DNA from: an uncultured Actinomycetes bacterium
GTDB taxonomy: Bacteria; Actinomycetota; Thermoleophilia; RBG-16-64-13
Direction of reading: 5' to 3'
DNA: 64,000 nucleotides
NCBI GenBank assembly: GCA_963841735.1
Contig: CAWJDT010000001.1
Coordinates: 1,312,001 to 1,376,000 of the forward strand
In this document: positions 23,814 through 39,702 of the stretch, piece after piece
Position numbering within the stretch: the stretch's first letter is position 1
Layout: the number at the start of each line of letters is the position of its first letter
Translations under genes and position numbers: made by a program
The notes under the pieces: generated by a model
What the model was told of the DNA's origin: nothing
Databases searched by the model: none
Seen by the model: the letters and a program-made list of their open reading frames with translations, nothing else

Positions 23814-24335
23814 CTACTTCTGCAGAAGCTCGTAGCCGGCCTCTTGCCAGGCGACGAAGCCCCCGTCTAAGTTGTAGAGGTTCGTGTATCCCGCTCGAAC
23901 CCACTCTTCTATCGAGATGCGGCTCATGCGGTCGCTGCGGCAGTAGACGACGATCTTGGCGTTCTTGTCGGCTGGGAGTTGGTCCAGCTGCTGAGCGGCT
24001 TGGTCGTAGGGAAGAAAGAGGTCGGTTTGCTCGATCTCGCCTTCGTAGGGCGTGTGGGTGTTGATGAAGAGGAAGTCCTTGTTCTTGAGCATGGCGGCGA
24101 GCTCGGCGGGGGTGATGTCGACGTAGGTCCCCGCTCCGTCGCTGGTGGTGACCACTGTACCCACCTTCTCGGGGCCGGCAGTGTCGACCGGAGGGACGGT
24201 CGCGCCGCCGCAGGCCGAGAGAGACGCCAGCGTGAGCGTCGTGGCTATGGCCACCCAGGGGATAAGCCGAGTGTTGCGGATTCTCCCTCTCCTCTTTGTG
24301 TGATCGCTAGATGGCAAGGTTCGCCCTCCCTCCAA
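23814..24335 (-). CDS. Rhodanese-domain lipoprotein
   Basis: Lipobox LSAC; VYCRSDRMS active-site loop; LDGGFVAW. Confidence 0.9.
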   Translation of the reverse strand: MEGGRTLPSSDHTKRRGRIRNTRLIPWVAIATTLTLASLSACGGATVPPVDTAGPEKVGTVVTTSDGAGTYVDITPAELAAMLKNKDFLFINTHTPYEGEIEQTDLFLPYDQAAQQLDQLPADKNAKIVVYCRSDRMSRISIEEWVRAGYTNLYNLDGGFVAWQEAGYELLQK

Positions 24336-27694: not shown

Positions 27695-28319
27695 GTGATG
27701 ATGGATACCACTTCTCTTGAGCGTCGCCGCCGACCAAGCGCGAGGCTTGTAACGCGCTGGGCCACGGCCATCCTGCTATGTGTGTCGGGGCTGGTCACGG
27801 CCCTCACCGGCATCTACTTCCTGTTTCTGCCCAACGGCGGCTACCAGGGGGGGCGCAACGCAGCCTACGCGACAACGCTGCTCTTCAGTAGAGGCACCTG
27901 GAGAGACCTTCACACCTGGACGGGCGTCACGATGCTGGCGCTGGCCGTTCCTGCATCTAGTGCTTCATCGCAAGTGGTTGGCCCAAATGGTGCGGCGCTC
28001 AGGGGCGGTTCTCACCGGACGTCGGAAACCTTGCCTGACGAGGGTCTGGCCTAGGGATATCGTGATTTGGAGTGTTACAGCCTCCTTTCTCGTGCTCACC
28101 GCTTCGTCGCTCTACTTCCTGTTTGCAGGGGGCGCTCACTCAGGCGGTGGCCTCGGCGGCTCCTCGCTCCTATTTGGCGGCTCCACATGGCATCTTCTGC
28201 ACACATGGGGAGCCATCGCCTTCATGGTCGCCATCGGCTCTCACCTGGCTTTGAGCTGGAAGCGGCTGGCGCGGGCGACACCCATAGTCTTTGGCGCCTC
28301 GTCTGCCAGAACGTCCTAG
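27695..28319 (+). CDS. Tandem DUF4405-like membrane protein (frameshift near 27950)
   Basis: Two W..LHTW...H repeats split across the ORFs starting at 27695 and 27780. Confidence 0.75.
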
Positions 28320-28409: not shown

Positions 28410-29580
28410 ATGAAACGTGCGGTCGTTCTGGGTGGAGGGATCGGCGGTGTCGAGGCCGCCATTGAGCTGAAGAAGAGGGGCTTGGAGGTCGAGCTGGTCT
28501 CCGACAGGGATTACCTCTTCGTCTATCCCCTCGCCATCTGGATCCCAACAGGGGAGCGGTCTGTCGATCGGGTGAGTATCGGACTCACCGATATCGCCAG
28601 GGCGCATGGGTTCAGCGTGACCATCGATGAGGTCGTCGGGGTGAGTGCCCGCGGACGTAGTTTCACCCTCAAGACCCGCGGCGAGCGCCAAGACTTCGAC
28701 TACCTGGTGCTGGCTCTCGGCGGAGCCAAGATGCCCCACAAGGGCAAGGAGCACACGCTCTCGATTTGCGGTGCGCCTGAGGAGAGCGTCCGGCTGCTCG
28801 AGCGACTCGACGCACTCATCGCTGTGGGCGGCGGCACGATCGCGGTCGGCTTCGGGGGCAATCCGAAGGACAGCAGCGCAGTGCGGGGCGGCCCGGGGTT
28901 CGAGTTTCTGTTCAACGTGCACCATCGGCTCGAAGAAGCTGGGAGTTCGCAGAGGCTTCGACCTCGTGTTCTTTGCGCCCATGCCTCAGCCCGGCATCCG
29001 CATGGGGGAGAAAGCGGTGCGCGCAATGGACCGCATGCTCGCATCCCTTGGCATCCGTTCCTATACAGGCAAGAAGATCAGTGAGTTCGTCGAAGGCGCA
29101 GTCATTCTCGAGGACGGGACCAGGCTCGACGCGGATCTCATCATGTTCATCCCCGCGGGAGATGGCCACGGTGTTATGAAGTCTTCAGACCTGCCGCTGA
29201 GCGACGCCGGTTTTGTCTTGATAGACCGGGCCTGCGAGGTGAAGGGGTATCCGTGGCTCTACGCCATCGGCGATATGGCCGCCTTGGAGGGGCCGGAGTG
29301 GAAGGCCAAGCAGGGCCATGTGGCCGAAGTGATGGCTCGGACTGCCGCGCGGGATATCGCCCAGAAGGAGGCCGGCCGCGAGCGGAGCGGGAGCTACGTC
29401 GATGAACTCTGCATCATCTGCGTTATGGACATGGGCAACGGCGCCGGATTCGTCTATCGGAACGAGAAGCGGGCGCTGTTTGTGCCGCTGCCCATCGTGG
29501 GGCATTGGCTGAAGAAGAGTTGGGGCACGTATTACCGGCTGCGCAAGCTAGGGAAAATGCCTCGTATCCCCGGCATGTGA
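28410..29580 (+). CDS. sqr: Sulfide:quinone oxidoreductase-like flavoprotein (frameshift near 28930)
   Basis: VLGGGIGG; TLSIC; RGGPGFE; AIGD...WKAKQGH; CVMDMG. Split across two frames. Confidence 0.8.
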
Positions 29581-29585
29581 AGTCG

Positions 29586-29971
29586 CTAGCAGCAGGCCCC
29601 GGCCTGACTGTCTGCGCCTTCGGTGGTGCTCTTGTTGTCCTTGAGCGCGCAGCCAATCGTCGCAGTCGCCGCCGCAGATCACTCTTCTCTTCGGCCGTCA
29701 CCGCCCGGGATAGCGCATCGACGATGGCCGCCTGCGCCCCAGACAAGCGGGATGAGACGCGGTAGTACATCCATAGCCCCTCTCGGCGGTCTTCCACCAG
29801 CCCAGCATGGTAGAGATAGCGCAAATGGCGAGAGGCTTTCGATTGGGTCAATCCCAGAGCCCCGACAAAATCGCAGACACAGAGCTCCTCTCGTTCGAGG
29901 AGTAGCGTCATTATCTGCAACCTTGTTTCGTCGGAGAGCGCTTTGAAGGTGTCGGCCAAGTGGTTCATCAT
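29586..29971 (-). CDS. arsR: ArsR As(III)-sensing repressor (indel near the 3' end)
   Basis: FKALSDETR, ELCVCD and SRHL; the alternative frame ends ...QAGACC-stop at 29586. Confidence 0.85.
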
Positions 29972-30396
29972 GACACGCCTTCCGCGGGACTGGGCGTCTC
30001 GAGGATCTCGTCGACTGTCGACGCTATCGCGTCGGCTACCAGGCGCACAGCCTCGTCGTCCGCCGGACCGCGTGACCGCGACGACCGTTGACAGCCGGCA
30101 GCGCTCGTCCCAAGGATATCCCGCACGACCAGAGCGCGCGCCACCGGTCCGCCGTGCTTCTCGGTGCCCCATCTCGCGCATTGCTTGTCGCATCCGTCGA
30201 TGGTGATGGTGGGATGAGTGCGGGCGAAGTTACGTTCGCCCTCATTGCCCGCCAGGAACAGGGGTAGGCAGAGAGTGACTGTCTCGTGAGGTCTTAGGGA
30301 TTCCAGCACCCGGCGGACGGCATTGCGGGAAATGGTGCCCTCGGCTATTTCCTCACCGCTGCAGGAGATGATGCCCACCTTGGTGGTCTTGTTCAT
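29968..30396 (-). CDS. DGC-domain putative zinc-binding protein
   Basis: IISCSG...TLCLP...IDGCDKQCA. Confidence 0.88.
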   Translation of the reverse strand: MNKTTKVGIISCSGEEIAEGTISRNAVRRVLESLRPHETVTLCLPLFLAGNEGERNFARTHPTITIDGCDKQCARWGTEKHGGPVARALVVRDILGTSAAGCQRSSRSRGPADDEAVRLVADAIASTVDEILETPSPAEGVS

Positions 30397-30408
30397 TTCG
30401 TGCGGTCA

Positions 30409-30835
30409 TCACGCCACCTCTTCGCCGGCGCGGAGTCGAGCGGCCTCGTCGGCCACCGCTTCGGCGATCTCTCGACTGATAGTCCAGCCTTCCTCGGTGA
30501 GTTCTGTCCCGCTACCTGGCTGGACGCCCCGGCGAGCTGCTTAGGAATCGAGCGACCTGAAAGGCTTTTGCCACCTGGCCGCCCGCGATCTCGACGTTCT
30601 TCTGCGCGCAGGCCTTGCCACAACCGTCGATGGTTACGCAGGGGTGCGTCCGCACCTTGGCCAAAGTCTCTCCATCTTCTCTCACCAGCAGTGCCAAGCA
30701 GACCACGTCGGTTTCGGCCGGCGCAAGCTCGTCGGTGGCCAGATAGGCGGATTCCCGGCTGAGAAGCCCGTGGACTTTGCCGATGCCGCTGCACGGGATC
30801 ACCAGCACCTTGTCCGAGACTTCATTCATGTCCAT
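30409..30835 (-). CDS. DGC-domain putative zinc-binding protein (frameshift near 30530)
   Basis: IPCSG...VVCL...IDGCGKACA; the alternative frame ends ...EAARLRAGEEVA-stop. Confidence 0.82.
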
Positions 30836-30841
30836 GTGTCC

Positions 30842-31703
30842 TTAGTATTCGGCGGCTTTGTGCTCGACGTCGGCAGCGTATGCCGGACCGTCGACCAGTA
30901 GTTCGCGGTCCTCTTCCCAGGCGGTAAGCTGCAATTCGACGATCCAACTGCCATACGGGTCCTCATTGATCCATTCCGGGGCGTCGTCTACTGCCTGGTT
31001 GATGCGCACCACCGTACCGCTCACGGGCGACACCAGCTCGAAGGCGGCCTTGGCCGACTCGATGGTGCCCACCTCGCCGAACTGCTCGATGCTCGCGCCG
31101 ATCTCGGGCGGGTCCACGTAGGTGATATCAGTGAGCCGTTGCTGCAGGTAGTCGGAGATGCCTACCCGGGCCCTGGCTGCCGGCCACCCGCACCCAGACG
31201 TCGTTCGCGTTGAAGAAGTATCCGGTCAAGGGGATGCGGAACTCGTACTTGTCGTGGACCACCACCGCAAAATCCGAGGGCGTTTCGAACTCTGCCTCCG
31301 GCGGTGCTTCCCTCGCGTTCTCCGTGGTCGCGGGCACGCCGGTCTCGGACGCTTTGATGCCGTCGACTATGGTCCGGGCAAGCTCGAGAGCGTCAGTACC
31401 AAGGCGGAGCCCAGGTTCCAGCGCGCGGCCGGACTTCTTGACGGCGTCGGTCACCAGCACCTTTTGCGCCGGTTTGGCCTGGGCGGCCACGGCCAGCCTG
31501 GTGGCGCACTGGGTTGCGCATCCATCGACCACGATAAGCCGTTTCTCGGTGAGCGCCTTCTTGTAGCGCGCGGGAGTGCGGTTGAGCACCACCGGGCAGA
31601 TGATCTGCGCCCCCGTTTCTTCTGCCAGTATGATGGCCACTTCGCGGGCCACCGAACCCTCGGGCTTGTCGAGACCCGTGCAGGAGAGGACTGCGTAGCT
31701 CAT
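30842..31703 (-). CDS. DGC-domain / glycine-cleavage H-protein (lipoyl domain) fusion (frameshift near 31175)
   Basis: N-terminal LSCTG..ICP..VDGCATQCA; W.RV..ARVGISDYLQQRLTDITYV spans the shift; TIESAKAAFELVSPVSG...NEDPYG.W. Confidence 0.82.
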
Positions 31704-32008
31704 TGCCCACCATCCTCGGTGAGCGACTCGTCGGCCGCGGTTCGCAGCTGCTTGATGATAGCCACGGTCTCGGGCTTATCGGGAAACGAAAGCGCGTCGG
31801 GGCCGCAGGTCTTGGAGCACGCCCGGCAGAAGACCACACAATTGTGGGGATTGGCTACTACAAGCTTGGTGTCGCCCTCTCGGCGTTCGAAGACCCGGTG
31901 CGGGCAGAACTCGTCGCACTCCATGCAGAAATCGCACTTGTCGTAGTCGATGGTGGGCGCCCACGGGATCCTGCTGCGCGGCACCCCCATGAAGGTGGTC
32001 TCAGCCAT
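31700..32008 (-). CDS. 2x[4Fe-4S] ferredoxin
   Basis: CDFCMECDEFCP and CVVFCRACSKTC. Confidence 0.9.
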   Translation of the reverse strand: MAETTFMGVPRSRIPWAPTIDYDKCDFCMECDEFCPHRVFERREGDTKLVVANPHNCVVFCRACSKTCGPDALSFPDKPETVAIIKQLRTAADESLTEDGGQ

Positions 32009-32435
32009 TGTCGCCACCGTCCTCCTCGACGCCCATGTCGCGCAGCGCGGCCGCCACCTTGTCGAACGCCTCGTCGGTGGTCATCTCGCGGATGTCGAGG
32101 GGTACCATGTCTTTCTTCACGTCCATGCCCTCGGCGGCGAACGCGTCGCGGAACATCTTGTTCTGCATGTTGGGGGCGCAGGCGGCGATGACCAGGGGCC
32201 GCTTGGCCTGCAGGATATCGGCCAGAAAACGGTCGCCGTCTTCCTCGCACAACTGCGGGTGGATCATCCCGAACTCCACCGGCAACTCGATACGGACCCG
32301 GTTGATGAAGTCCCAGATGTCCATCTTCTCGAAACCGGGACACTTGCCGGTGCACACGCACATGATCAGGCCGGGGCGGACCGGCGGGGTGCCGGCCGCG
32401 GCTTTTGCTTCAGAGTTCTGTTGGGTGTCGCTCAT
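32001..32435 (-). CDS. Stand-alone protein resembling the N-terminal domain of HdrA
   Basis: CVCTGKC...HPQLC..DG...VIAACAP..Q...F...LDIRE parallels the HdrA N-terminal CxCG..C..AACSP..NIRE pattern. Confidence 0.7.
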   Translation of the reverse strand: MSDTQQNSEAKAAAGTPPVRPGLIMCVCTGKCPGFEKMDIWDFINRVRIELPVEFGMIHPQLCEEDGDRFLADILQAKRPLVIAACAPNMQNKMFRDAFAAEGMDVKKDMVPLDIREMTTDEAFDKVAAALRDMGVEEDGGDNG

Positions 32436-32503
32436 CGGTCATCTGCCTCCTTGGGCTTGTCCGATCCGGCGTGGATCGCGGCCAAGCATAAGATACCGTT
32501 TCA

Positions 32504-32527
32504 TTATAACCGGATAAACGGGTATAA
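32504..32527. promoter_or_regulatory. ArsR-type operator, copy 1
   Basis: TTATAACCG-GATAAA-CGGGTATAA. Confidence 0.7.
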
Positions 32528-32657
32528 ACGAGCCCACCCCAGGCGATGCCTTCGTCGTGGTTGCCAAGGCTGCTTTTCAGGCCATGACCCCGAATAAGGG
32601 CGATCACCCCGTTGGGGTATGCGCTGTAGCCCACCAGATCACCCCGGCCTCAGCCTG

Positions 32658-33506
32658 CTATCGGGGCTTAGTCGCGCAGATGTTGGCCGACAACACGTAG
32701 TCCTCCAGCCGGGTCCCCGGCTCCCATTCCCGTATGAACTCCCGGCTTTCTTCCTTGGCGTGGATGTCGATATCCACAAAACCGGCCGCCCGGAGCATCG
32801 TCTCCACCTCGTCCACCGTGGCTGCTCCCGAGATGCAGCTCGACAGCGCGTGCATGTCTTCTCGCCATTCTTCAGGCAGTTCCGCCGTGGCTACCACGTC
32901 GCTGACCGCGAGGCGTCCGCCCGGCCGCAGCGCCCGGAACGCCTCCCTGAACACCGCCGGCTTATCCGGGGAGAGGTTGATCACACAGTTGGAGATGATC
33001 ACGTCGGCAGTCGCGTCGGCCACCGGCAGGTGCTCGATCTCGCCCAGCCGGAAGTCGACGTTGGCATAGCCCGCCTTGCGCGCGTTGTCGCGGGCCTTGG
33101 TCACCATCTCCGGGGTCATGTCCACCCCGATGACGTTACCGTTGCCCCCAACCGCACGAGCCGCGAGGAAGCAGTCGAAGCCGGCGCCCGCTCCCAAGTC
33201 CAGCACTACTTCACCCGGCTTGAGCGCCGCGATAGCCTGTGGGTTGCCGCACCCCAGCCCCAAGTTGGCGCCTTCGGGCGCCGCCGCCAGCTCTTCCGCG
33301 GTGTAGCCCAGGGTGTGCGAAGTGGCGTTCGCGTCGGAGATCGCTCCAGGAGCCAGCGTCCCGCAGCACGACGAGGACGACCCGCAGCAGCCAGTGCTTG
33401 AGCCCGAGTCCGCTTGGGCGATGCCTGCGTAGCGTGAGCGCACCGCGTCCCGTACGTAGTCCTCACGCGCGCCGTCACCCGCCGCTTTTTGGTCTTGGTC
33501 TTTCAT
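32658..33506 (-). CDS. arsM: Arsenite S-adenosylmethionine methyltransferase
   Basis: [29 protein letters not shown] and SCISGA motifs. Confidence 0.95.
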
Positions 33507-34576
33507 CACTCCTCCTTGGAGATATGGGAGTCGCCGATCACGGCCGGGACCGGCCAGTATCGCCGCCGGAACCAGAAGGCCACATTCACCAGCCCTATCA
33601 TCACGGGCACCTCCACCAGCGGGCCTATCACGGCCGCGAAAGCCTGGGCCGAGCCCAGCCCGAAGACCGACACCGCTACGGCGATGGCCAGCTCGAAGTT
33701 GTTCGACGCCGCGGTGAAGGCAAGGGTGGTGCTCTTGCCGTAGTCGGCCCCTATCTTCTTGCCCATGTAGAAGCTCACCAGGAACATGATGACGAAGTAG
33801 ATCAAAAGCGGGACGGCCACCCTGAGCACATCCAGAGGCAGTTGCACGATGATCTCGCCCTTGAGCGAGAACATCACCAGGATGGTGAACAGGAGCGCGA
33901 TCAGAGTGATAGGGCTGATGCGGGGGATGAACTGGGTGTGATACCACTCTTTGGTCTTGAACCTCAGCAGCGTGAAGCGGGTGAGAATGCCGGCCGCGAA
34001 GGGGATGCCCAGGTAGATGCCCACGCTCTTCGCGATCTGCCCGATGCTCACGTCTACGGCCACTCCCTCCAGGCCGAACCAACGGGGTAGCACGGTGATG
34101 AACACGTAGGCGTAGACGGAATAGAAGAGTACCTGGAACACCGAGTTGAAGGCCACCAGCCCGGCGGCATATTCGCTGTCGCCCTTAGCCAGCTCGTTCC
34201 AGACGATGACCATGGCGATGCAGCGAGCGAGCCCGATCATGATCACGCCCTGCATGAGGGCCGACTTGTCCGAGAGCAAAAGGATGGCCAGGAAGAACAT
34301 GAGGATGGGACCGATGATCCAGTTCTGCACCAGGGAGAGCACGAGAATCTTCCAATTGCGAAAGACGTCGCCCAGTTCTTCGTAGTGGATCTTGGCCAGG
34401 GGCGGGTACATCATCACGATAAGCCCGATGGCGATGGGGATAGAGGTGGTGCCGATAGAGGCGCGCTCTATCGCCTTGCCGATCTGGGGCCACAAGTACC
34501 CAGCCGCCACCCCGATGCCCATGGCCAGGAAGATCCACAGGGTTAAGAATCGGTCAAGAAATGAAAGACGCTTCAT
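33506..34576 (-). CDS. acr3: Acr3 arsenite efflux transporter
   Basis: [35 protein letters not shown] and GPLVEVP. Confidence 0.97.
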
Positions 34577-34628
34577 CCGCTGCCTCGCCTTGCGCCGGAA
34601 CAGAGCCGCTGGTCATGTCATGCTCGCG

Positions 34629-34650
34629 TACAACCGCTTGCACGGTTGTA
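34629..34650. promoter_or_regulatory. ArsR-type operator, copy 2
   Basis: Perfect 8-6-8 palindrome TACAACCG-CTTGCA-CGGTTGTA upstream of acr3. Confidence 0.75.
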
Positions 34651-34696
34651 TTGTAGCGCGAATCACGTCTGTTGTGGAGGGAAGTGGCCGGGCAAC

Positions 34697-34858
34697 TCTG
34701 GACGCCTCGTTCTGCACCCAGGCACTAGAAGAAGCTCTGGATCGTCACGGAGCCCCGGAGATCATGAACACCGACCAAGGCTCTCGGTTTACCTCGGAAT
34801 GTTTCACCGGTCTGCCGCACGCCTCCGGCGTCAAGATCATCATGGACGGCCGGGGCGC
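34697..34858 (+). pseudogene. IS3-family transposase (rve) fragment
   Basis: FCTQALEEAL..HGAPEIMNTDQGSRFTS...MDGRG with no flanking transposase sequence. Confidence 0.8.
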
Positions 34859-35188
34859 TGTTTCTTCGGTCGTCAGGAAGCTTTTCTCACCCGCAAGGAG
34901 TCTGCGCAACCGTGGAGCTTTGTTTGGAGTACGCCGGTGCCGTATTGACTTCGTGGTTACGCATTTGATAGTGTCACACCAAGCCGTAATGGGGTATCAG
35001 CGTTGCCGAACGCGGAGCCACAGAGCCCGGCTCGGGGGGGGGGCGCCTTTGGAGCACAAACAGAGGATTGCCGTAGCGGTCTTGGGCCGAATCGCTGCGA
35101 TTGCCCTCTAGCCGTGCGCGGCTTCAGCATTCTCAACGTCTCCGTGTCGTATCGCGAGATCTCGTTCTACAATGGGAGAGAGTGAGAG

Positions 35189-37591: not shown

Positions 37592-38494
37592 CTACTCGTT
37601 CGCCCGGTAGTACGCCGCCCACTTGGCGTCCACCTGGGCCTGGATATCGGCGATCTTGTCGTCGGTGAGCAGTTTGAAGCGCGCCTGAGGCTTAAGGTAG
37701 TCGGCTACGGGCACCAACTGCCGCTTTTCCAGGAGCTTCTCCGAAGCGCCGGTGAGCCGGAACTCGCCCTGCACCACCTCGTACAGATCGAAGTAGCCCG
37801 TCTCCACAGCCAGCCGGCCCAGCTTTATGCTGTAGCGCGGGTCGAAGCCCCAGCCCGGTGGGCAGGGCGTGTGGATGTGGATGTACTTGGTGCCCTTTAG
37901 GGTGAGGGCCTTCTTGATCTTGTCGTAGAGGTCGAGCGGGTAGGCCCCCGAGGCAGTGGCCACGTAGTCGATGCCGTGCGCGGCCATGATGGCCGGCACG
38001 TCCTTCTTCTGCTGCAGCTTGCCCTTGATGGGGGTGGTGGCGGTGATGGCTCCCTGGGGTGTGGTGCCCGAGCGCTGCACCCCGGTGTTCATGTAGCCTT
38101 CGTTGTCGTAGCAGATGAAGAGGAAGTCGTCGCCGCGCTCGGCCGCGCCCGAGAGCGCCTGGATGCCGATGTCGGCGGTGCCGCCGTCGCCGGCCCACGC
38201 CACCACCTTGGTGTGTTCCCTGCCCTGGGCCTTGAGGGCCTCGAGCACGCCTGTGGCCGCCGCCGCCGTGGAGGCGAACGTCACGTTGAGGCAAGGCAGC
38301 TTGGTGGAGGCTACCGGGAAGAGACCTTGTAGCACTGTGAGGCAACTGGGCGGCACCACCAGGATGGTGTCGGGCCCCAGGGCCTTCAGGCCGATGCGGT
38401 AGGCGATGCTGAGGCCGCAGCCCGTGCAGGCTCGGTTGCCCGGGTACACGTACTCCTCTTTGGGGAGCGCGAGGATGGTGGTCTTGGTGCTCAC
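37592..38494 (-). CDS. porB: Pyruvate/2-oxoacid:ferredoxin oxidoreductase beta subunit (TPP)
   Basis: ACTGCG, GDGGTADIG, YDNEGYMNTG and PCPPGW. Confidence 0.92.
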   Translation of the reverse strand: MSTKTTILALPKEEYVYPGNRACTGCGLSIAYRIGLKALGPDTILVVPPSCLTVLQGLFPVASTKLPCLNVTFASTAAAATGVLEALKAQGREHTKVVAWAGDGGTADIGIQALSGAAERGDDFLFICYDNEGYMNTGVQRSGTTPQGAITATTPIKGKLQQKKDVPAIMAAHGIDYVATASGAYPLDLYDKIKKALTLKGTKYIHIHTPCPPGWGFDPRYSIKLGRLAVETGYFDLYEVVQGEFRLTGASEKLLEKRQLVPVADYLKPQARFKLLTDDKIADIQAQVDAKWAAYYRANE

Positions 38495-39702
38495 AGCTTG
38501 TTCCCTATCCAGACGGGCCCATCTTGCAGCGTGCCATTGACGGCGGCGCGCAGGGTGTCGGTGAGGTCGGGGGTGCGGATGTCGCGGCCGCCGATGCCGG
38601 CGATGAGGCCCTTGACTGGGGGCGCCGCGCTGCCGCCGGCGGCGCGGCTCAGCAGTTGCCCGTAGAGGGCGGCCTTGACGTCGGAGCAGAGGGCTCCCTC
38701 GTAGCCATAGGAGAGAGCCTTTTCTATGACAAACACCCCCTGGGCATGCCGCACGGCCTGGGCCAGGGCCTCGTCGGGGAAGGGCCGGTAGAGCCTCACT
38801 CCTAGCACGCCCAGCTTGAGCCCCTCGGCCCGCAGGGTCTCGACCACGTCGCGCAACTGGTAGGTGAGCGAGCCAAGGCCGACGACGATGTACTCGGCGT
38901 CGTCACAGCGGTAGGGCTCCAGAAGGGCGTCGCCGCCCCGGCCGAAGACCGCCTTGAAGTCATCTTCAACCTGTTGGGCGACGGTGAGGGCGCCGCGCAG
39001 GTCTTCCTGCAACAGATAGCGGATCTCCATGTAGCCGTGGGCCATCTCGCCCGTGGTGTCCATGCGCACGTCGGGCAGGGTGACGGTATTGAGGTTGGCC
39101 GGATTGGCGGGATCTAGAGCATAGGAGGGCTTGAATGGCTTCAGGAAGCGAGAGACATTCTCGGCCTCTGGAACCTCGAAAGGCATGTAGGTGTGCGAGA
39201 GCAGATAGCCGTCGTAGCAGACCATGACGGGGATGCTCACGGTCTCGGCCAGGGCGAAGGCTTTGAGTACGGTGTCGATGATCTGCTGGTGATCGCAGCA
39301 GTACATCTGGATCCAGCCGGTGTCGCGCTGCGAGATGGAGTCTTGGTGGTCGTTCCAGATGCACCACGGGGCTCCCACGGCGCGGTTGACCACGCACATC
39401 ACCAGGGGGAGCCTGGCGCCCGCCGCCCAGTGGATCTGCTCGTGCATGTAGAGCAGGCCGTTGGCGCTGGTGGCGGTAAACGCCCGCGCGCCCGTGGAAC
39501 TCGCGGCGATGCAGGCCGCCAAGGCGGAGTGTTCGCTCTCCACGGGGATGTACTGTGCCTTCATCTCGCCGGCCTCGATGAGTTCCGAGAGTTTCTCGGT
39601 GAGGGGGGTCTGTGGGGTGATGGGGTAGGCTGCGATAACCTGGGCTTGGGCCAGCTTGACCCCCAAGGCCGCCGCGACGTTGCCGTTCTCGATTATGTGC
39701 AT
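38491..39702 (-). CDS. porA: Pyruvate/2-oxoacid:ferredoxin oxidoreductase alpha subunit
   Basis: AYPITPQT, ESEHSA and YRPFP. Confidence 0.92.
   Translation of the reverse strand: MHIIENGNVAAALGVKLAQAQVIAAYPITPQTPLTEKLSELIEAGEMKAQYIPVESEHSALAACIAASSTGARAFTATSANGLLYMHEQIHWAAGARLPLVMCVVNRAVGAPWCIWNDHQDSISQRDTGWIQMYCCDHQQIIDTVLKAFALAETVSIPVMVCYDGYLLSHTYMPFEVPEAENVSRFLKPFKPSYALDPANPANLNTVTLPDVRMDTTGEMAHGYMEIRYLLQEDLRGALTVAQQVEDDFKAVFGRGGDALLEPYRCDDAEYIVVGLGSLTYQLRDVVETLRAEGLKLGVLGVRLYRPFPDEALAQAVRHAQGVFVIEKALSYGYEGALCSDVKAALYGQLLSRAAGGSAAPPVKGLIAGIGGRDIRTPDLTDTLRAAVNGTLQDGPVWIGNKL

Follow-up and report, generated by a model that had tools for sequence, protein, structure and literature searches.

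How reducing power reaches ArsM, ArsC and the organoarsenical enzymes of anaerobes is poorly known, although the anaerobic methylation of arsenic in paddy soils and peat matters for arsenic in rice and in water. The question is raised by a locus in the genome of an uncultured soil Actinomycetes bacterium (GenBank assembly GCA_963841735.1). The stretch analyzed, hereafter the window, comprises 64,000 nucleotides (nt) of contig CAWJDT010000001.1 (positions 1,312,001 to 1,376,000), and eight genes lie within it on the minus strand at 34650..29586: acr3, arsM, a gene for a 144-amino-acid (144-aa) protein, a ferredoxin gene, a fusion of DGC and GcvH domains (DGC-GcvH), two further DGC genes and arsR. 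What do the five genes between arsM and arsR (hereafter the cassette) do beside genes for arsenic efflux and methylation? The cassette is widespread across several phyla yet undescribed in the literature searched, and we tentatively propose that it is a ferredoxin-driven lipoyl dithiol relay serving arsenic enzymes.

The cassette and its neighbors in relatives

A first-pass annotation made from the sequence alone had described six tightly coupled genes, ending in arsR, downstream of acr3-arsM. Matches to Pfam and NCBIfam bear out this content, and the coupling also stands: the 144-aa gene and the ferredoxin gene overlap by 17 nt, two further junctions overlap by 4 nt each, and the remaining two have gaps of 6 and 12 nt, though three of the genes are not intact as assembled. 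Upstream, the 356-aa acr3 arsenite efflux transporter (33506..34576; TIGR00832, 453.9 bits versus a cut-off of 282.8; Pfam SBF) has its stop overlapped by 1 nt by the start of arsM (32658..33506), which encodes a 282-aa arsenite methyltransferase (NF008823, 354.6 bits versus a cut-off of 263; Methyltransf_31). The sole wide spacing in the cluster is the 222-nt gap from arsM to the 144-aa gene.

Relatives of the 144-aa protein were sought in 185,579 species-representative genomes, and the best 80 of the 304 places found were examined, a sample that leans towards close relatives. In 75 of these 80 loci the order 144-aa protein, ferredoxin, DGC-GcvH, DGC, DGC is complete; of the other five, a contig end truncates four and L020 is interrupted. 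There (L020:10452-13052), the break of ~2.3 kb begins after the ferredoxin start and is followed by a second, partial 144-aa gene, after which the cassette resumes. The hosts are Actinomycetota, Acidobacteriota, Armatimonadota, a Planctomycetaceae metagenome-assembled genome (MAG), a Desulfovibrio MAG and the isolate Neomoorella carbonis ACPs; since this last is cultured, tests of the proposal are feasible.

Neighbors were counted by tblastn within 10 kb, using one representative per family, with family names assigned to the representative only. An ArsR-family gene accompanies the cassette in 73 of the 80 loci (on the same strand and within -3.5 to +6 kb in 63). An ArsE-type thioredoxin-like gene (TIGR00412, 105 bits on the representative) is found in 63 loci, usually directly upstream, and an LplA-type ligase in 43, usually directly downstream. 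Genes for arsM and an ArsG-family permease (NF040495, 285.8 bits) each occur in 26 loci, acr3 in 24, an ArsF-family nitroreductase subunit (NF040494, 97.7 bits) in 23, thioredoxin-type ArsC in 17, a CMD/AhpD-family gene in 15, ArsP in eight and ArsA in five; at least one arsenic structural gene is present in 41. A radical SAM/SPASM gene was also seen near the cassette in nine loci (upstream of acr3 in L001, L004, L009 and L010, and in L030, L045, L051, L053 and L055); in NCBIfam it comes closest to maturase families, without reaching their cut-offs.

The enrichment of ars genes near homologues, which the first-pass annotation had put forward as a check, is thus evident for ArsR-family and arsenic structural genes alike, and the regulator background is low: five host genomes (25.5 Mb) contain 52 HTH_5 genes, or ~2 per Mb, so that ~0.04 would fall by chance in a 20-kb locus. 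In the same genomes, two of seven acr3 copies lie within 10 kb of the cassette. The distribution of the 144-aa gene is patchy, as fits an accessory trait: among 121 genomes searched in the window's class it was present in 10, own genome included, comprising nine of the 20 other genomes of the same family and none of 100 genomes from nine other families. No plasmid record searched encodes it.

The window's own genome (89.7% complete) has no match to PF01451 (low-molecular-weight protein tyrosine phosphatase) or PF03960, and hence no recognizable ArsC, and no match to TIGR00412, the ArsE-type model; the earlier observation that no arsC lies nearby therefore holds for the whole assembly. For ArsG, the best NF040495 score in this genome is 40.9 bits versus a cut-off of 200, and ArsF was not found by tblastn. 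The further suggestion that the cassette acts in place of thioredoxin, glutaredoxin, ArsC or ArsD is not supported as it was put, as the cassette of relatives accompanies ArsE-type genes (63/80) and sometimes thioredoxin-type ArsC (17/80). The lack of ArsC and ArsE is a feature of the window's genome; in relatives the cassette usually stands with such genes.

Like ars operons with thiol accessories (thioredoxin-coupled ArsC, ArsD-ArsA, ArsEFG), the cassette has an ArsR-family regulator with the corresponding motif and shares its operator with acr3-arsM, and in relatives its genes line up in a single row with those for thioredoxin-type ArsC and the ArsE, ArsF and ArsG families. To our knowledge, lipoyl carriers, DGC proteins and HdrA-N-type Fe-S proteins are absent from the described ars operons. 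ArsEFG is the organoarsenical system of Chen, Zhang and Rosen (2019), as referenced in the available part of PMC9144182; the names ArsE, ArsF and ArsG are used here as NCBIfam assigns them, and none of the three was found in the window's genome, in contrast to 63, 23 and 26 of the 80 relatives. A literature search for the cassette returned no description and one relevant item, a preprint whose available part reports that an arsR5-arsP-ArsE-like-DGC operon of Pseudodesulfovibrio mercurii ND132 is up-regulated by As(III) and As(V) (bioRxiv 10.1101/2022.10.17.512643). That operon likewise puts an ArsR in charge of a DGC protein together with a thioredoxin-like protein of PF13192, but has one stand-alone DGC and no lipoyl carrier, ferredoxin or HdrA-N protein, and in the part of the preprint available its authors assign no function.

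A shared putative operator and the linked ArsR

Two operator-like palindromes of 22 bp bear on the arsenic link in the window itself. Palindrome 1 (34629..34650), TACAACCGTGCAAGCGGTTGTA, has the arms TACAACCG-N6-CGGTTGTA and lies ~53 nt upstream of acr3; a -10-like TACAAT directly precedes it, and a -35-like hexamer is located 17 nt further upstream. Palindrome 2 (32505..32526), TATACCCGTTTATCCGGTTATA, with the arms TATACCCG-N6-CGGTTATA, is 69 nt upstream of the 144-aa gene and contains TATAAT inside its right arm. The search pattern (TAYAMCCG-N6-CGGTTRTA) was derived from these sites, so the search is partly circular, but at up to two mismatches it matches just the two sites in the window (4 matches counted over both strands versus 0.02 expected). 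At up to one mismatch it occurs at two places only in the 2.82-Mb genome, before acr3 and before the cassette, in agreement with the earlier statement that the same palindrome precedes both units.

Similar palindromes are found upstream of acr3 in six relatives (L001, L002, L004, L009, L010 and L052), one of which (L009) also has one before the 144-aa gene. In other lineages a different 8-N6-8 palindrome lies 21-65 nt before the cassette-linked arsR (23 of 36 regions inspected, by our own count), and each ArsR subtype appears with its own version (L033, L051, L058, L068, L079, L036, L044 and others), such as TATTTGG..CCAAATA or TATATGGCC..GCCATATA, often with a TATAAT-like spacer.

The window's arsR (29586..29971; HTH_5) scores 95.1 bits on NF033788 (cut-off 55) and reads EELCVCDF, the As(III)-type cysteine motif, so that its earlier description as an ELCVCD-type regulator was correct. 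The CVC motif is typical of ArsR proteins that sense As(III) and Sb(III). An operator common to the cassette and acr3-arsM, together with a regulator of this type, supports the placement of the cassette in the arsenic regulon. The region may well be a small ArsR regulon in which two promoters carry the same putative operator, one for acr3-arsM and one for the cassette with the arsR that closes it, although we advance this layout with some reserve.

Redox proteins and a proposed electron path

The 144-aa protein (32001..32435) matched no Pfam or NCBIfam family. Its own family comprises at least 1348 clusters at E <= 0.001, and among the best 120 (74-95% identical) none has a Pfam domain. Five cysteines (C26, C28, C32, C63 and C86) are invariant in 16 sequences. 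In VIA-align, residues 17-140 of the structure model (predicted local distance difference test score, pLDDT, 78.9) match residues ~2-140 of seven HdrA chains with Z 9.1-10.4 (root-mean-square deviation, rmsd, 3.2-3.5 Å over 113-118 aligned residues), the next unrelated match having Z 8.4. A search of the family profile against PDB sequences matched HdrA alone (E 0.008), with C26, C28, C63 and C86 aligned to HdrA cysteines. Foldseek returned nothing at E <= 0.001, and the HdrA link thus rests on VIA-align and the profile search, which agree with the label "HdrA-N-like" given in the first-pass annotation.

With its flavodoxin-like fold and cysteine ligands after strands 1, 2 and 3, the modeled protein fits an HdrA-N or MvhD-like domain, and we regard it as a free-standing HdrA N-terminal domain with a predicted cluster site. 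In solved complexes, the HdrA domain presumably holds a [4Fe-4S] cluster. The fold matches the N-terminal domain of methanogen HdrA and MvhD (5odc, 7bkb, 8rvy) and the four cysteines align with the HdrA pattern CxC...C...C, but the cassette version is a separate protein of 125-144 aa with a fifth invariant cysteine. Longer fused forms were sought and none was found, which is weak evidence. The idea that this protein is a divergent DGC was dropped after a profile comparison with the DGC family (probability 0.2%).

The neighboring gene (31700..32017) encodes a 105-aa 2x[4Fe-4S] ferredoxin (Fer4 families) with two CxxCxxCxxxCP motifs, 60-93% identical across the 80 loci. Genes for the alpha and beta subunits of a 2-oxoacid:ferredoxin oxidoreductase (37592-39702, minus strand; POR_N, PFOR_II and TPP_enzyme_C) lie 3 kb from the cluster and would offer a local source of reduced ferredoxin.

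The putative lipoyl carrier is encoded by the DGC-GcvH gene (30842..31703; DGC, PF08859, 66.6 bits; GCV_H, PF01597, 97.5 bits), followed by the second DGC gene (30409..30835; 49.2 bits; ~142 aa in relatives) and a third of short form (29968..30396; 142 aa, 60.2 bits), all above the Pfam gathering cut-off of 27 bits for DGC. The fusion was modeled from the intact protein of a relative (L010) with 38 sequences (pLDDT 94.2). Its GcvH domain is canonical (Z 22.4 to 1dxm_A), and the lipoyl lysine and the four DGC cysteines are invariant in 38 of 38 relatives. The protein shares the GCV_H fold and lipoyl lysine with the H protein of glycine cleavage; that protein, however, stands alone at ~130 aa and works with P, T and L proteins, whereas the cassette GcvH is fused to DGC in 68 of 75 relatives. 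On NCBIfam GcvH models its C-terminal piece scores 99-102 bits, below the cut-offs of 116-117. The cassette contains no gcvP or gcvT, and a separate stand-alone GcvH gene is found on another contig of the window's genome. The ligase that many relatives keep beside the cassette has its counterpart there in the genome's sole LplA, ~300 kb away.

All three DGC genes encode four invariant cysteines, including the DGC motif, in alignments of relatives, and they account for every DGC domain in the genome. In the L010 model the DGC domain is flavodoxin-like and its four cysteines follow strands 1, 2 and 3, the same topological place as in HdrA-N, which makes a metal or Fe-S site plausible. DGC was also considered as an ArsC-like enzyme; the match to pI258 ArsC (1jf8_A, Z 6.9) falls within the noise of generic flavodoxin-like matches, and compared with the CX5R loop of protein tyrosine phosphatases, the loop after the first DGC cysteine has no arginine at +6. 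The third DGC protein has a median length of 229 aa among relatives, and in most of them it carries an extra C-terminal CxC domain of ~85 aa without a Pfam family (for example L014:11927-12622); that domain is missing from the short form encoded in the window and in its nearest relatives. In one locus (L005:11981-12643) a single open reading frame (ORF) fuses the third DGC domain to a Thioredoxin_3 domain; this could reflect a genuine gene fusion, or else a deletion or a misassembly of that MAG.

From these parts we propose a path in which the cassette ferredoxin would supply low-potential electrons, which would then move by way of the HdrA-N-type [4Fe-4S] protein and the four-cysteine centers of the three DGC domains to the lipoyl arm of the GcvH domain fused to the first DGC. 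The dihydrolipoyl arm would reduce disulfides formed by arsenic enzymes in turnover and might in addition retain As(III) for transfer. The client in the window's organism would be ArsM, and those in relatives the ArsE-type thioredoxin-like proteins, thioredoxin-type ArsC and ArsF. We infer which cofactors the DGC domains bind, that the proteins form a complex, which way the electrons flow, which clients are served and that arsenic induces the cassette. A comparable chain was reportedly described by Bryk et al. in 2002 as the Lpd-DlaT(SucB)-AhpD-AhpC peroxidase relay of Mycobacterium tuberculosis, in which protein-bound dihydrolipoyl is likewise said to reduce a small thiol protein, though with electrons from NADH through Lpd. 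An AhpD-like intermediate was considered for the cassette and the idea weakened: the CMD/AhpD-family neighbors, which follow the ligase, carry SxxC rather than CxxC, leaving one cysteine, and occur in only 15 of 80 loci. The window has no CMD gene; NCBIfam contains an ArsM/AhpD fusion family.

The same dithiol chemistry allows another role. As(III) binds vicinal dithiols such as dihydrolipoamide tightly, and the dihydrolipoyl arm and DGC cysteines could instead bind As(III) or MAs(III), buffering it from the cell's lipoyl enzymes or handing it on to Acr3 or ArsM in the way that ArsD serves ArsA, with the Fe-S proteins merely keeping the arm reduced. Three DGC paralogs with four invariant cysteines each are compatible with such a sink or chaperone, as is the position of the cassette directly after acr3-arsM in the window and its relatives. 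We nevertheless judge it unlikely, given that in half of the relatives neither a pump nor a methylase is encoded within 10 kb and that a stoichiometric sink leaves the ferredoxin, the Fe-S protein and the thioredoxin-like partner (63/80) unexplained. A disulfide relay fits better than a pure sink because a CxxC thioredoxin-like protein is the most regular partner after ArsR and because one locus (L005) joins a thioredoxin-like domain to a DGC protein.

If the proposed relay is correct, the DGC domain family gains a function, lipoate gains a second role outside central metabolism (after the sHdr-LbpA system discussed below), and a concrete, testable electron path leads from ferredoxin to arsenic chemistry, with lipoic acid, arsenic's classic target, used as a tool against arsenic. 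A broader version, which we find doubtful in its full extent, is that anaerobes of many phyla, strict and facultative, employ protein-bound lipoate as a working part of an arsenic-induced redox machine. DGC would then be a new Fe-S or metalloid center coupling ferredoxin to the dithiol arm in place of NAD(P)H-dependent thioredoxin reductase or lipoamide dehydrogenase, and the arm would drive arsenic methylation and the reduction of arsenate or organoarsenicals. Thioredoxin reductase and lipoamide dehydrogenase, themselves dithiol enzymes, may be vulnerable to arsenic.

Contrary evidence and the state of the window's copy

Several observations weigh against the proposed relay. On the DGC side, the best structural match (3pu6_A; Z 9.6, rmsd 3.2 Å, 116 residues) is an uncharacterized Wolinella protein and the remaining fold matches are generic; a sequence search for solved DGC relatives found none. 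Profile comparison detected no similarity between the DGC family and the family of the 144-aa Fe-S protein, and Pfam describes DGC as a zinc site. The window's genome encodes a normal NAD-linked lipoamide dehydrogenase, so that a second route to dihydrolipoyl is not obviously needed, and its lack of an ArsE-type protein leaves the relay without that intermediate. At the thresholds used, no arsenic structural gene was detected within 10 kb in 39 of the 80 loci, and 33 loci have genes for other metal efflux systems (ChrA, CDF or OEP). An ArsR neighbor alone is no proof of an arsenic role, because sulfane-sulfur-sensing ArsR-type repressors control the lipoate-dependent sHdr system, according to the available part of PMC12423496. 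Finally, three genes change frame as assembled: DGC-GcvH near 31173-31177, the second DGC gene near 30500-30540, and arsR, which leaves the frame of its relatives after ~29678 (~residue 97).

The loci with other efflux genes, and those without arsenic genes, would suit a general response to thiophilic metals or disulfide stress. The cassette would then serve as a low-potential disulfide reductase or dithiol system induced by several soft metals or by oxidants, with arsenic as just one of its inducers. Regulators speak on both sides here. Adjacent same-strand arsR genes are present in 50 of the 80 loci by one definition and number 52 by a slightly wider one; among these 52, 19 carry a non-canonical C-terminal PCVC, but 33 have the CVC-type motif (C-V/I/A/L-C-D/E/G). 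As the operator of the window's genome is common only to the cassette and acr3-arsM, and as the commonest partners bear ars names (ArsE, ArsF, ArsG, ArsC, ArsM, Acr3), we consider so general a role quite unlikely.

A sulfur or persulfide system would be akin in logic to sHdr-LbpA sulfur oxidation; in it, sulfane sulfur would be the load of the lipoyl carrier and persulfide the signal for the ArsR-type regulators. In the available parts of the sources, that system joins Hdr-related proteins with a GcvH-like lipoate-binding protein and a dedicated ligase (PMC6067878; PMC11094781) under ArsR-type repressors (PMC12423496). The cassette resembles it in having an Hdr-related Fe-S component, an ArsR-type repressor and a GcvH-like carrier that does not belong to glycine cleavage, and in many loci it comes with a ligase of its own; it differs, as far as those parts describe sHdr-LbpA, in having DGC domains, one of them fused to the carrier, and arsenic-gene neighbors instead of HdrB/C and a flavin domain. 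Of the sulfur transferases DsrE, TusA and rhodanese, none appeared in the 36 recurrent neighbor families scanned; the window has one rhodanese gene, 5 kb away, and also, within 6 kb, an SQR-like flavoprotein gene. Even so, such a system appears highly improbable: no HdrB/C CCG-domain, flavin-bearing HdrA, DsrE or TusA was found in the cassette or in those 36 families. The SQR-like gene recurs in only two of the 80 loci, and the BigR model gives the window's ArsR 37 bits (cut-off 155) versus 86 bits on the E. coli-type ArsR model PRK10141, itself below the cut-off of 97.

The frame changes could also be real, leaving pseudogenes in the window whatever the cassette does elsewhere, since there are three within 2.1 kb and since metallophosphoesterase and transposase remnants flank the cluster. 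The relatives have unbroken copies, DGC-GcvH being within 12% of its 281-aa median length in 68 of 75 loci, with DGC and GcvH in one frame in same-genus and same-family relatives. The arsR ORF as assembled extends to 29423, and the alternative frame alone stops at 29586 with ..ACC; the ArsR C-termini of relatives are ..ACC or ..SCC. Frame changes aside, the coding sequence of the window's cassette is 60-96% identical to that of relatives. The three frameshifts are probably long-read assembly errors rather than decay, because the convergent SQR-like gene is frameshifted as well, two breaks coincide with short G/C runs, and split genes among the 80 loci are almost confined to 'MFD'-named MAGs. 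We take these MAGs to be long-read assemblies. Decay of the window's copy is thus very unlikely in our view.

The frameshifted neighbor, an SQR-like or pyridine-nucleotide-disulfide oxidoreductase gene (28410-29580, plus strand), is convergent with the cluster and split over two frames; L002 has a homologue downstream of the cassette, and so does L077, with 25% identity. In the gap between arsM and the 144-aa gene lies the remnant of a YfcE-type metallophosphoesterase gene (32539..32643, minus strand), which by tblastn corresponds to residues 40-74 of the L010 protein with 68.6% identity; an intact copy is present in eight of the 80 loci, and some relatives have it in this very gap. At the other end, just upstream of the acr3 promoter, an ORF at 34690-34860 (plus strand) has a weak rve match (E 3e-4, 21.4 bits versus a cut-off of 32.6) and is probably what remains of a transposase at the edge of the arsenic cluster. 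A rhodanese-domain protein (23814-24335, minus strand) and pieces of a DUF4405 membrane protein (27695-28319, plus strand) are encoded in the interval bounded by a two-component system and the SQR-like gene, and this stretch may be a small sulfur-related neighborhood unrelated to the cassette.

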